This document shows positions 21,408 through 36,643 of a stretch of DNA of 64,000 bases, in pieces. Origin of the DNA: Nanobdellota archaeon. GTDB taxonomy: Archaea; Nanobdellota; Nanobdellia; Woesearchaeales; GCA-2686295. The notes below the pieces were generated by a model. That model made no database searches and had not been told where the DNA came from. It saw nothing but the letters and a program-made list of their open reading frames with translations. The DNA is taken from positions 625 through 64,624 of the forward strand of contig JAHJQL010000075.1 of the NCBI GenBank assembly GCA_018819065.1, written 5' to 3'. Each line of letters starts with the position of its first letter. The first letter of the stretch is position 1. Position numbers and translations under genes: made by a program.

Positions 21408-22420
21408 TTTTCCATGTCATGATTAACATATGCTTTTTTTATAGTTTTCTTAGCGCTTAAACCATAATAGCTTAATAAGATCAGCCCAATTATACTCCAA
21501 ACAATATCTCTTGCTCTTGTAAGAAGGGCTAATGCTATTCCTGCAACGCTTTTCATCCCAATCATTGGGAAGACAAATACTTGGCTTGCTTCAACAGCGC
21601 CAAGACCAAGTGGTATTGGAAATAAGAATGCTGCTCCAAGAAAGCTTACAATCAAGAATATTGCTGTAAAAGAAACATCCTGCCCAAGCATTAACAATAC
21701 TAGTTTAAATTCAAGAAACATTAAAATCCAAGCAATTAGCGACATAAGCATCGCCATAAGGAAATACTTTTTGTCATGCTGAAAAAATTTTATTATGAGA
21801 CCCTCAAAGTTTTTTATTTTATACTCAGTTATTTTCAAACTTTTTATTCTGTCTATCTTTAGAAGATGAAATAACCCTAAGATAAATCCTTTTCCACTCG
21901 CAAGCCTGTGATAAATAAAAATCATTCCACCAAGAAGAATTGTTGATGACAATATCAACATGACACTTGTTTTACCTGGCAGGGCGAACTTGAAAACAAC
22001 TAAGATTGCCCCCATGAAGAAAAAAAGTGCAGATGAAGAAATCTCTATAGTCTTGTCTATTATCACAGATGATAACGCCTTTGGAAACTTTATGTCATGA
22101 TTTGATAACAGCAAAGCCCTGATGGGCTCACCGCCAATCTTTGCAGAAGGTGTTAAATAACTAATACCATAACCAACAATCATGTAGTTAAAGATGTTTA
22201 AAAAAGGAACTTTCAAATTCTGACTCTTTAATATAGTTTTCCAACGCCAAGCCAGTACAATCATGATGGAAACTGAAATAAGAAGGTAGCCGACAATGTT
22301 TTTGGTGTCTGCCGCCATGAACGAATCTAATACTTCCTTGAACGAAACAAACCTAAGAACAAAGAATAAAGCAACCAAACCTATGACTAATGATGCAATC
22401 AACCAAATCTTTTTTTTCAT
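21404..22420 (-). CDS. Flippase-like / lysyl-phosphatidylglycerol-synthase TM-region family membrane protein (UPF0104)
   Basis: 338 aa with about 8 predicted TM helices. PSAKIGGEPIRALLL is typical of UPF0104/TIGR00374 proteins. Confidence 0.65.
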   Translation of the reverse strand: MKKKIWLIASLVIGLVALFFVLRFVSFKEVLDSFMAADTKNIVGYLLISVSIMIVLAWRWKTILKSQNLKVPFLNIFNYMIVGYGISYLTPSAKIGGEPIRALLLSNHDIKFPKALSSVIIDKTIEISSSALFFFMGAILVVFKFALPGKTSVMLILSSTILLGGMIFIYHRLASGKGFILGLFHLLKIDRIKSLKITEYKIKNFEGLIIKFFQHDKKYFLMAMLMSLIAWILMFLEFKLVLLMLGQDVSFTAIFLIVSFLGAAFLFPIPLGLGAVEASQVFVFPMIGMKSVAGIALALLTRARDIVWSIIGLILLSYYGLSAKKTIKKAYVNHDMEK

Positions 22421-22518
22421 CGAGTTTAAAGAGAGATGATTCGTATTTAAATGTTTAGATGGTTGACGTTATTCGTTTTCTATTATGAAAAATTAACAGC
22501 TAATAAAATTATTTTTTT

Positions 22519-22770
22519 ATTAAAAATCTCGATAGAGATTTTGTTTGGGTTTAATACTCAGAAATAATTTGTGATTTCTGGTACTAGAAATGTTCCATTT
22601 CTCTGTACCCCAACCTTTAGGTCGAGATTTTTAATTCAGAGAAATGTTTTTGCATTTCTCGAACCAGCAACTTTGTTGCTGTGTTCCAAAAATTCAACTT
22701 TTAAGATAGTCGAGCGTAATACCCCAACCTTCAGGTTGGGGATAGCCGACTATCATCGAATTTTTGTTAT
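22519..22770. repeat. 252-bp direct repeat, copy A (3' flank of tRNA-Arg)
   Basis: It aligns without indels to 23161-23412 (offset 642 nt), and I count 9 substitutions. It consists of consecutive hairpins, for example aaaatctc-gata-gagatttt, ggtac..gtacc, cagcaac-ttt-gttgctg and ccccaacc-ttca-ggttgggg nested in gatagtcg..cgactatc. Confidence 0.85.
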
Positions 22771-22777
22771 AAACGTA

Positions 22778-23123
22778 CGGACCTGGGGGGACTTTCGTCA
22801 GAAACAACTCGTGTGGCTGAGCGAACTTGAAGTGAGCGAATGCCGCACTTCAGTGCCAGCGCCCTCAAAACAAATGTTTTGGGGTCCCAAAAATCTTTGA
22901 TTTTTGAGGAAATGAGTGTCGCTGTTTCGAACCCCCGACCTACAGCTTAGGAGGCTGTCGCGCTATTTGCCCACAACCCTTATCAGCGTTATCAAAAAGC
23001 TGCGCTTTTTGGAAACTCCCAAAAATCTACGATTTTTGATAGTTGATGGGGATTATGCTCCCTGTCAGTCGCGGTGCTTTGCACCAATGTGCTGAAGATT
23101 GTTCCAGGCTGCGCTACAGGTCC
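22778..23123 (-). tRNA. tRNA-Arg(CCT) with two long introns (D-loop, about 136 nt; T-loop 59/60, 134 nt)
   Basis: The minus strand reads GGACCTG-TA-GCGC-AGCCTGGAAC [intron about 23100..22965] A-GCGC-G-ACAGC-CTCCTAA-GCTGT-AGGTC-GGGGG-TTCGAA [intron 22925..22792] T-CCCCC-CAGGTCC-G. All four stems are perfectly paired, and the anticodon CCT lies at 22951..22949. Confidence 0.85.
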
Positions 23124-23160
23124 GTGTAATAATCAGAAAGTATCTCTTTTTTTAAATATT

Positions 23161-23412
23161 ATTAAAAATCTCAACAGAGATTTTGTTGGGGTTTAATACT
23201 CAGAAATAATTTGTGATTTCTGGTACTAGAAATGTTCCATTTCTCTGTACCCCGACCTTCAGGTTGAGATTTTTAATTCAGAGAAATGTTTTTGCATTTC
23301 TCGAACCAGCAACTTTGTTGCTGTGTTCCAAAAATTCGATTTTTAAGATAGTCGAGCGTAATACCCCAACCTTCAGGTTGGGGATAGCCGACTATCGTCG
23401 AATTTTTGTTAT
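23161..23412. repeat. 252-bp direct repeat, copy B (5' flank of tRNA-Arg)
   Basis: See copy A. The substitutions fall in hairpin loops (gata vs aaca) or improve or maintain pairing (caacc..ggtcg vs cgacc..ggttg). Confidence 0.85.
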
Positions 23413-23507
23413 CTTTATTTAAATTTTTCTGTAATTCCTAGGAATATTTGTATATCTTAATCTTTTTTTTCACAAAATATTAAAAACACCAAACAATTAA
23501 TGTTTTT

Positions 23508-24461
23508 ATGAAAATAAAGCAGCTTCCGGAAGATTTTATCGTCAGAGAAATTCCTGATTATGAGAAAGAAGACGGTCCTTATTCAGTGTTTATTTTGAAA
23601 AAAAGAAATTACACGACTGAGAGGGCCATACAAAGAATCTGTGAAGCATTGCACATAAAGAGAAACAGGGTTGGCTATGCAGGAATAAAAGATAAGGTTG
23701 CAGTGACTGAACAGTACATCTCTTTGTTTAAAATTTCAAAAAAAATCGTTGCATCATTAAAACTAAAAGACTTGGAGCTGGAATTTGTCTCGTTCTCAAA
23801 AAATCCTATTTCTCTTGGAATGCTTAAAGAGAATAGCTTTGAAATAATTGTTAGGGATCTTGAAAAAGATTTCAAAATAAGTGATTGTGGAAGAATAAAG
23901 AATTATTTTGACAGCCAAAGATTCTCGCACAATAACGCGGTTGTTGGGTTGGCATTGCTAAAGAGGGATTTTAAGAAGGCAGTGAACTTAATTTTGGAGA
24001 CTGAAGGAGATTATGAGTGTGAAATGAAAGAGTTTTTGAAGTCAAACCCAAACAACTATGTTGGTGCCCTTGGGAAAATTCCTCATAAGATACTGTTACT
24101 ATTTATCCACGCCTATCAAAGCGACTTATTCAATAAAACCATAGACTTGCTTGACAACAAAAAAAATGTTCTTGTACCAATAGTTGGTTTTGGGACGGAA
24201 TATGAAGATAAAAAGATGAAGAGTATAATTCAAGACTTTCTTTCACGCGATGGATTGACTGAAAGAGATTTTGTCATTCAACAGATAAAAGGGCTAAGCA
24301 GTTTTGGAGAGCAAAGACCTTTGTATGTCTCTTTAAAAAATCTTAGTGTTGGGAGTTTGAAAGCTGATGATTTGAATAAGGGCAAGTATAAATTAAAAGT
24401 TAGTTTTTCGCTTCCAAAAGGATCTTATGCAACTAATGTTTTGAAGAGTTTAGTGAGCTGA
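23508..24461 (+). CDS. truD: tRNA pseudouridine(13) synthase TruD/Pus7
   Basis: N-terminal MKIKQLPEDFIVREI and catalytic GYAGIKDKVAVTEQ (KD...T.Q) motif. Confidence 0.85.
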   Translation: MKIKQLPEDFIVREIPDYEKEDGPYSVFILKKRNYTTERAIQRICEALHIKRNRVGYAGIKDKVAVTEQYISLFKISKKIVASLKLKDLELEFVSFSKNPISLGMLKENSFEIIVRDLEKDFKISDCGRIKNYFDSQRFSHNNAVVGLALLKRDFKKAVNLILETEGDYECEMKEFLKSNPNNYVGALGKIPHKILLLFIHAYQSDLFNKTIDLLDNKKNVLVPIVGFGTEYEDKKMKSIIQDFLSRDGLTERDFVIQQIKGLSSFGEQRPLYVSLKNLSVGSLKADDLNKGKYKLKVSFSLPKGSYATNVLKSLVS

Positions 24462-36502: not shown

Positions 36503-36643
36503 AGCGGGGTAGGGCAGTCAGGAACGACAAGACTAATTGTTGCTGTAAGTGCCCGTCGGGCTCATATCAAAACTTCGTTTTGGACCTCCAAAACAAGTTT
36601 GTAGGTAACCCGAAGGTCGATGGTTCAAATCCATCCCCCGCTA
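36503..36643 (+). tRNA. Initiator tRNA-Met(CAT) with two introns (D-loop about 25 nt; canonical 37/38, about 41 nt)
   Basis: AGCGGGG-TA-GGGC-AGTCAGGAAC[..]-GCCC-G-TCGGG-CTCATA [36567..36607] A-CCCGA-AGGTC-GATGG-TTCAAAT-CCATC-CCCCGCT-A. The A1:U72 pair and the three G:C pairs closing the anticodon stem are archaeal initiator hallmarks. 35 nt between the D-stem strands implies an insertion. Confidence 0.85.

Follow-up and report, generated by a model that had tools for sequence, protein, structure and literature searches.

The minus-strand locus 23123-22778 of the window (the whole 64,000-nt stretch of DNA that was analysed) raises the question of whether a tRNA gene that is interrupted twice, outside its anticodon loop, still gives rise to a tRNA, and by which route. 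In the raw 64-kb window, neither ARAGORN (with -i) nor an Rfam gathering-score scan reports a tRNA, whether at this locus or elsewhere. We find that the locus is very likely where an archaeon of the Woesearchaeota (DPANN) encodes its tRNA-Arg(CCU), in one functional copy that carries two protein-spliced archaeal introns. Specifically, the gene consists of three exons (20, 41 and 14 nt) and two introns (137 and 134 nt), starts with GGACCTG-TA-GCGC-AGCCTGG and finishes with TCCCCC-CAGGTCC-G. Excision of 23103-22967 and 22925-22792 leaves a 75-nt product that ARAGORN calls tRNA-Arg(cct), with 21 of 21 Watson–Crick stem pairs, and the joined exons retain all of the usual conserved tRNA positions. 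Shuffled three-piece joins of the same lengths yielded a tRNA call in 0 of 3000 trials. The proposal of the earlier note, a tRNA-Arg(CCT) in three exons with introns in the D-loop and at position 59/60, is borne out by this cloverleaf, and likewise by the orthologues, the covariation and the presence of EndA and RtcB described below.

Exon 1 (23104..23123; minus strand, as for all parts of the gene) comprises the 5′ strand of the acceptor stem, U8-A9, the 5′ strand of the D-stem and the D-loop up to G19 (GGACCTGTAGCGCAGCCTGG). It was delimited by spliced alignment and ARAGORN, its end being set by the intron-less orthologues. The last nucleotides of exon 1 are AGCCTGG, the final one being G19, because these orthologues read AG(C/T)CTGGATA followed by the D-stem and because the splice motif has its cut sites at GG|a and aa|A; the mature D-loop is then AGCCUGGAUA. 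A D-loop intron of about 136 nt had previously been placed after AGCCTGGAAC; the position in the D-loop stands, but exon 1 ends 3 nt earlier and intron 1 (22967..23103, between positions 19 and 20) is 137 nt long. An alternative register one base rightward (20/20a) yields an identical spliced product. Exon 2 (22926..22966) contains A20-U20a-A21, the 3′ strand of the D-stem, the anticodon arm with the anticodon CCT at 22951-22949, the variable loop, the 5′ strand of the T-stem and T-loop positions 54-59; as had been claimed, the anticodon loop of the spliced gene is uninterrupted. Intron 2 (22792..22925) separates T-loop positions 59 and 60, and exon 3 (22778..22791) supplies U60, the 3′ strands of the T-stem and the acceptor stem and the discriminator G73, with no CCA encoded at the 3′ end. 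The G+C content is 59-79% in the exons, 44-47% in the introns and 34% in the window.

Both junctions form motifs of the bulge-helix-bulge (BHB) type, each with imperfections, in which two 3-nt bulges surround a 4-bp helix and the predicted cut sites fall after the second bulge nucleotide. At the D-loop junction, a GCCU/GGGC helix is flanked by the bulges G18-G19-a and a-a-A20. Its 5′ half (23096..23109) consists of GCCU (23109-23106), the bulge GG|a (23105-23103) and the h′ strand ACAAUCU (23102-23096), and its 3′ half (22966..22979) of the h′ strand GGGUUGU (22979-22973), GGGC (22972-22969) and the bulge aa|A (22968-22966). In an unconstrained fold of the full precursor, the pair probabilities of this central helix are 0.95-0.97. 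At the T-loop junction, the T-stem GGGGG/CCCCC runs into UUCG/cgaa, followed by the bulges, CAG/CUG and more pairs. Here the 5′ half (22922..22936) comprises the T-stem GGGGG (22936-22932), UUCG (22931-22928), the bulge AA|a (22927-22925) and the h′ strand CAG (22924-22922), and the 3′ half (22786..22801) the h′ strand CUG (22801-22799), an unpaired A (22798), CGAA (22797-22794), the bulge ag|U (22793-22791) and CCCCC (22790-22786). This T-loop BHB forms in exactly this shape in the unconstrained minimum free energy (MFE) fold of the 346-nt precursor, with pair probabilities of 0.87-0.99; for the two central helices together the range is 0.87-0.98. The T-loop geometry given in the earlier note, a 134-nt intron with TTCG/cgaa pairing and the bulges A58-A59-a and a-g-U60, was reproduced, with the extra unpaired A added to it.

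A purpose-written, motif-only search, which looks for 3-nt bulges around a central helix of 4 bp, together with flanking helices, and in which the boundaries were not pre-set, recovers the same introns, after gene positions 20 (137 nt) and 198 (134 nt). In shuffled introns, both central helices occur in register at a frequency of 3e-4. Additionally, across 15 related D-loop junctions, 93.8% of the cells are paired in the D-loop structure, and the central helix is paired in 100%. In 6 sequences, C-G is exchanged for U-A within the central helix; eight pairs are doubly changed, and double changes occur at all five h′ pairs. The covariation score is reached by 0 of 500 shuffles, and slid controls are only 24-46% paired. 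Across 27 junctions the T-loop geometry is retained, the central helix being TTCG/CGAA in some and TTCA/TGAA in others, and the extra unpaired base recurs; pairing of the T-loop central helix was a search criterion for the genes of this genome and not for those of its relatives.

These motifs bear on whether the insertions could leave by another route, namely self-splicing, trans-splicing of separate transcripts or excision of the inserts from the DNA. Nothing positive speaks for such a route, and we consider it highly improbable. Neither a group I or II intron nor any other family is detected in the introns by an Rfam search at E<=10; over 22450-23480 it returns only noise (SmY and plant miRNA), all of it far short of the gathering scores, and the top hit, SmY, reaches 19.8 bits where 39 would be needed. 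Introns of 134-137 nt are too short to be self-splicing. Moreover, the three exons are collinear within 346 nt behind one AT-rich, promoter-like stretch, and the junctions carry an EndA motif with covariation. A split, trans-spliced tRNA was rejected as a candidate on the same collinearity, the pieces not lying at separate loci. An intron-encoded box C/D guide RNA was also considered and rejected, since neither intron contains a box C (RUGAUGA) or TGATGA or gives an Rfam match.

The same gene is found between the same neighbours in related genomes. The Arg-CCU gene is flanked by an LPG_synthase_TM membrane protein gene and TruD, as it is in 8 relatives, and the exons are identical to those of the orthologues at 65-72 of 75 positions. 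The closest named relatives of TruD come from metagenome-assembled genomes labelled ‘Candidatus Woesearchaeota archaeon’ and ‘Nanobdellati archaeon’. Spliced alignment reveals no intron in G008 (same genus) and G009 (same family), whose orthologues are contiguous, are 68/75 identical, have the D-loop AGTCTGGATA and score 71.5 and 63 bits against the Rfam tRNA model. By the same alignment, G007, G006 and G002 have a D-loop intron only (60-85 nt), G004 has a D-loop intron of 79 nt and a canonical intron of 45 nt, and G003 has a D-loop intron of 127 nt, a canonical intron of 45 nt and a T-loop intron of 218 nt, alongside the D-loop intron of 137 nt and the T-loop intron of 134 nt in this genome (G000). 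The three-intron congener orthologue (L032; contig C163 of G003, minus strand 215-679) is a gene of about 465 nt with introns summing to 390 nt. In the more distant genera represented by G054, G033, G023 and G034, D-loop and 59/60 introns occur together. The syntenic locus offers a natural within-genus series of 0, 1, 2 and 3 introns, with unrelated introns at one site, in which intron gain, loss and replacement become directly comparable.

This synteny also argues against an assembly artefact, in which a repeat-rich mis-join would have brought together exon pieces that are not contiguous in the real chromosome. Although the 254-bp repeat that flanks the gene and the hairpin modules in its introns are multi-copy and often lie at contig ends, the syntenic locus of 8 relatives shows the same order and orientation of the exon pieces and the same gene on either side, the non-repeat parts of the introns are unique or have a single paralogue, and introns occupy these two positions also in orthologues that were assembled independently. 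A mis-join is accordingly very hard to credit. The intergenic space measures 171 nt in G008 versus 1087 nt here, the extra length coming from both introns, a pair of 254-bp repeats and further sequence. Within the region corresponding to window 22420-23508, the tRNA-Arg(CCU) gene is oriented one way in L001, L006, L027, L034 and L036 and in reverse in L003 and L022; its opposite orientation between the same neighbours, seen among species of the genus and of the family, implies that a short tRNA segment was inverted at least once.

A further alternative is that the locus is a decayed pseudo-tRNA, in which two repeat-bearing insertions have disabled Arg-CCU and AGG is now read by tRNA-Arg(UCU). 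A tRNA-Arg(UCU) is indeed present, repeats flank and invade the locus, and T5 runs lie within both introns. Against decay, however, none of the 21 stem pairs or conserved tRNA positions is damaged, and the two insertions occupy splice positions that recur in other genes, each with a BHB motif in register. In addition, the exons are identical to those of a congener at 72 of 75 positions while the introns of the two genes are unalignable, candidates resembling tRNA-Phe and initiator tRNA-Met bear the same kinds of intron and the same module, and no other Arg-CCU copy exists in the assembly. We therefore judge decay to be unlikely.

The genome as a whole provides the setting for the gene. It comprises 1.52 Mb in 93 contigs, is 95.5% complete and has 34% GC; across it, ARAGORN reports 16 tRNAs (some mis-called) and Rfam 12 above threshold. 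A search for pairs of acceptor and T-arm sequences with G+C-rich acceptor stems yields 34 candidate tRNA genes. Motif-based splicing of these candidates gave implausible anticodons for several (‘Stop’, ‘SeC’), so its results are used only for the tRNA-Arg(CCU) locus and for tRNA-Lys(UUU), and the census of other tRNAs is rough. A T-loop insertion at 59/60, of 46-142 nt, is found in at least 18 of the 34 candidates, and four of the genes measure 331-346 nt. Because 18 candidates share 59/60 insertions, the two-intron Arg-CCU gene is typical of its genome rather than exceptional. The earlier view that such long introns are uncommon in an AT-rich, small-genome archaeon does not hold for this organism and its relatives, given these 18 candidates and the intron total of 390 nt in a congener. 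AGG makes up 22% of the arginine codons, and no second tRNA-Arg(CCU) was found in the assembly; tRNA-Arg(UCU) is encoded, with its own 62-nt D-loop intron.

The enzymes for splicing are encoded as well. EndA (C39:188-826) is a 212-aa protein made of a single N-terminal domain and a single catalytic domain (PF01974, 102 bits; PF02778, 66.5 bits), and its best PDB match is the N. equitans catalytic subunit NEQ205. Apart from an N-terminal extension of 45 aa that is rich in Lys and Glu, it aligns nearly gap-free with the alpha4 EndA of M. jannaschii. A Pfam PF01974 search of the genome, followed by tblastn with the alpha protein, revealed no second EndA subunit. Where a check for an epsilon2 or heterotetrameric endonuclease had been suggested, a single alpha-type EndA was found instead; by its sequence, this enzyme falls outside the broad-specificity EndA class, having no beta subunit, no three-unit fusion and no loop insert. 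Efficient cutting of relaxed motifs has been linked to loop inserts (Kaneta et al. 2018, PMC5829648). Since the motifs at both junctions are near canonical, a plain alpha-type EndA may suffice for them. The sole EndA of this genome is without broad-substrate loop inserts, although non-canonical introns occur in most of its tRNA genes.

Several observations weigh against a working two-intron gene. The unpaired A at 22798 lies opposite the 5′ bulge of the T-loop motif, between h′ and the central helix. At the D-loop, the outer helix is interrupted, A14, U20a and A21 not being cleanly paired, and the MFE structure, which favours a slightly shifted register, is more stable than the canonical conformer by 0.7 kcal/mol. 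In alignment, EndA lacks both the 6 extra residues of NEQ205 and the ~10 extra crenarchaeal residues, which were assigned to named specificity loops by alignment position only. At the intronic T5/T4 runs, which could act as weak terminators, the archaeal RNA polymerase might stop early on some transcripts. Finally, tRNA-Arg(UCU) could read AGG by wobble, in which case the Arg-CCU gene may be dispensable. Taken together with the evidence above, the two-intron tRNA-Arg(CCU) gene is nonetheless genuine and probably functional.

For such a gene, we infer a path of transcription, splicing and aminoacylation as follows. A precursor of ~346 nt would be transcribed from an AT-rich upstream promoter, for which the TATA-like stretch AATATTTAAAAAAAG (23146..23160, minus strand), located by eye 23-37 nt 5′ of the mature end, is a candidate. 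In this precursor, to judge from the letters alone, the exons would fold into the stems of the cloverleaf while the ends of the introns pair with adjacent exon loops to create the BHB motifs, and the T-loop BHB would stack on the T-stem, thereby mimicking the anticodon arm of a canonical 37/38 intron. In each bulge, the single alpha-type EndA would cut between the second nucleotide and the third, and the three exons would be ligated into the 75-nt tRNA by RtcB, encoded on C55 (570 bits). A20, an identity element for arginyl-tRNA synthetase in other systems, lies exactly at the joint of exon 1 and exon 2.

Where, then, do the two introns come from, and why are they so long? Both belong to families common to tRNA genes of this genome. 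Intron 1 is identical at 77 of 83 positions (92.8%), outside a 54-nt insert, to the D-loop intron of tRNA-Lys(UUU) (C82:27614-27800, minus strand), a gene with an 85-nt D-loop intron and a 28-nt canonical intron whose spliced form ARAGORN confirms. Within this genome, tRNA genes for different amino acids thus have highly similar introns, the mark of intron transposition. The congeners G007 and G006 have, at the site of intron 1, an Arg-CCU intron that is not related to it but matches this genome's Arg-UCU D-loop intron at 85% identity. These cross-gene similarities indicate that introns have been exchanged among tRNA genes. The T-loop introns of several candidate genes have 5′ hairpins and 3′ ends in common. 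No close paralogue of intron 2 was found, and a BLAST search with its non-repeat part against 40 relatives matched only its own locus.

The two introns are unusually long mainly because each received a two-hairpin repeat of ~50 nt; without these modules, each Arg-CCU intron would be ~85 nt, the size of its relatives. The T-loop intron paralogues likewise differ by such a block, measuring 142 nt on C46 versus 88 nt at C81:2693. Insertion of a small palindromic repeat is therefore one concrete route by which archaeal tRNA introns lengthen. On the sense strand, each intron contains T5/T4 runs (22862-23041, minus; GATTTTTGGG, GCTTTTTGAT and TTTGTTTTGAGG).

The 54-nt insert of intron 1 (22988..23041, minus strand) is a two-hairpin A5/T5 palindromic module (TATCAAAAATCGTAGATTTTTGG / CCAAAAAGCGCAGCTTTTTGATA) with a 2-nt AC boundary repeat, and it is missing from the otherwise 92.8%-identical tRNA-Lys(UUU) intron. 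Intron 2 holds a module of ~48 nt (family D5; 22862..22909, minus strand) in the loop of its 5′ hairpin CAGCG...CGCTG, with approximate boundaries because an empty-site copy was not found. The two-hairpin pattern occurs at 17 loci in the genome versus 0 in shuffled genomes, about 10 of them within tRNA introns; besides the two copies in the Arg-CCU introns, the module family includes C31:4877-4929, C46:17263-17315, C70:399-451, C84:48441-48494 and C49:47112-47168, among others. Perfect single CAAAA...TTTTG hairpins number 77 in the genome versus 3-9 in simulations, and 17 of the 77 units lie inside the 34 candidate tRNA genes, which occupy 0.43% of the genome. A5/T5 hairpin modules are also seen inside the 218-nt T-loop intron of the three-intron orthologue L032. 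The module of intron 1 was considered as a nested intron (twintron) and rejected: its terminal repeats pair, but by inspection its flanks form a 2 x 4 internal loop, with no staggered 3-nt bulges around a 4-bp helix.

Three pairs of filled and empty module sites are found. In the third, located upstream of IS200-like Y1 transposase genes, the C31 site is filled and the C49 site is empty: the C31 module lies 28 nt 5′ of the Y1 start codon and is inserted in a hairpin that is intact in the C49 copy. The module copy of intron 1 is 47/54 identical to this C31 copy. The genome has two full-length Y1_Tnp genes of IS200/IS605 type (C31:4957-5408 and C49:8566-8970) and three fragments elsewhere; the reading frame of the C31 transposase is possibly broken near its 5′ end. 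The module stands directly 5′ of the 3′ arm of the host stem in 4 of 4 placeable cases. Its boundary repeats are AC, CC and G (2, 2 and 1 nt), an inconsistency that leaves no firm target-site duplication. In its size of ~50 nt, its multiple copies, its two inverted hairpin units, its filled and empty sites and the Y1 transposase genes in the genome, the module resembles repetitive extragenic palindromes (REP) and their REPIN form, and miniature inverted-repeat transposable elements (MITE), which are mobilised in trans by Y1 transposases of IS200/IS605 or REP-associated tyrosine transposase (RAYT) type. It differs from them in its inconsistent boundary repeats and in its concentration in tRNA genes, which is not a known trait of such repeats, and the link to a transposase is putative.

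The initiator tRNA-Met gene (window ~36503-36643) has a 41-nt canonical intron that is identical at 37 of 46 positions to the 45-nt canonical intron of Arg-CCU in G003 and G004, the only two congeners with that intron. Both the 41-nt initiator intron and the 45-nt Arg-CCU introns (L034 and L032) consist almost wholly of one module, and the central helix of their BHB has a mismatch, C34-A. These data permit a tentative and rather doubtful idea, that the module is a mobile REP/MITE-like element, perhaps moved in trans by Y1, which prefers tRNA genes, makes introns grow and may itself become a canonical intron. If so, a module within a BHB intron would be removed along with the intron, and introns would serve as safe havens that lengthen. 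A module landing in an anticodon loop might even be spliced out in its own right and so become a new canonical intron, a route hinted at because the two canonical introns consist nearly entirely of module and match at 37 of 46 positions. Such a process would supply a DNA-level route by which archaeal tRNA introns are gained and grow, a matter that the literature leaves open; a 2026 preprint on Asgard archaea still treats the arrival of tRNA introns as open. Our literature search found no paper tying small palindromic repeats to archaeal tRNA introns.

Multi-intron tRNA genes with BHB motifs at non-canonical positions, including 59/60, have been described in the Thermoproteales (Pyrobaculum, Caldivirga and Thermofilum; PMC4090602, PMC4033280, PMC8450103), and such features are established for some other archaea as well. 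The present case is alike in that EndA-type introns lie outside the anticodon loop, number up to three per gene and affect many tRNA genes, and in that the T-arm mimics the anticodon arm at 59/60. It differs in that the host belongs to the DPANN Woesearchaeota and has a single alpha-type EndA, whereas the crenarchaeal enzyme has two subunits and a specific loop, and in that the introns here reach 134-137 nt through repeat modules. Intron transposition among tRNA genes was described for the Thermoproteales in work of 2010, as related in PMC4033280 and PMC4090602. To the extent of those accounts, the near-identical same-position introns of Arg-CCU and Lys-UUU (92.8%) are a comparable case, distinguished by the unrelated same-site introns that orthologous Arg-CCU genes have within one genus and by a paralogue that differs by a 54-nt insert.

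In Woesearchaeota and Pacearchaeota, alpha4-type EndA has been tied to the disruption of many tRNA genes, and gaps in the predicted tRNA sets have been taken to indicate disrupted genes that escaped detection (Kaneta et al. 2018, PMC5829648). The same phenomenon recurs here in the same superphylum, with tRNA finders recovering 12-16 tRNAs; that study gives genome-level counts only and does not describe the gene, its orthologue series or the intron contents. Gene sets of Woesearchaeota and inferences on their codon capacity will therefore be wrong unless split-aware tRNA searches are used. The enzyme is not of the epsilon2 type of the ARMAN-2 splicing endonuclease system (PMC3239211). The long intron of Haloferax volcanii tRNA-Trp, as cited in PMC12558985, encodes a box C/D guide RNA; like it, the introns here are ~100 nt or more and are predicted to be excised through a BHB, but they have no box C and no Rfam match, and no guide function is indicated. 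Taken together, the gene is an ordinary example of a described class, and the link between the module and tRNA introns is a lead worth following.

The surroundings of the gene are also rich in repeats. A 254-bp repeat (family D1) occurs in two copies that are 96% identical: the downstream copy (22517..22770) starts 8 nt past the tRNA 3′ end, and the upstream copy (23159..23412) stops 35 nt short of the tRNA 5′ end. It is part of a modular multi-copy repeat found on >30 contigs, often at contig ends, and a shorter form of ~140 nt, present at many contig ends, probably fragments the assembly. The open reading frames that overlay this region (22571-22900, 22916-23095 and 23213-23422) have no Pfam match, in agreement with the earlier note, which had called them spurious. 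A second multi-copy repeat, GTGAAATAAACAGGGGGTGAAAC...GGAGATACTG with the hairpin TCAAAAATCAAAGATTTTT, forms the first ~137 nt of C36, C42, C29 and C23 and is also found at the ends of C60, C39, C41 and C30; the unique sequence that it adjoins differs from copy to copy, and a TTTATATA-like box comes after it in each case.

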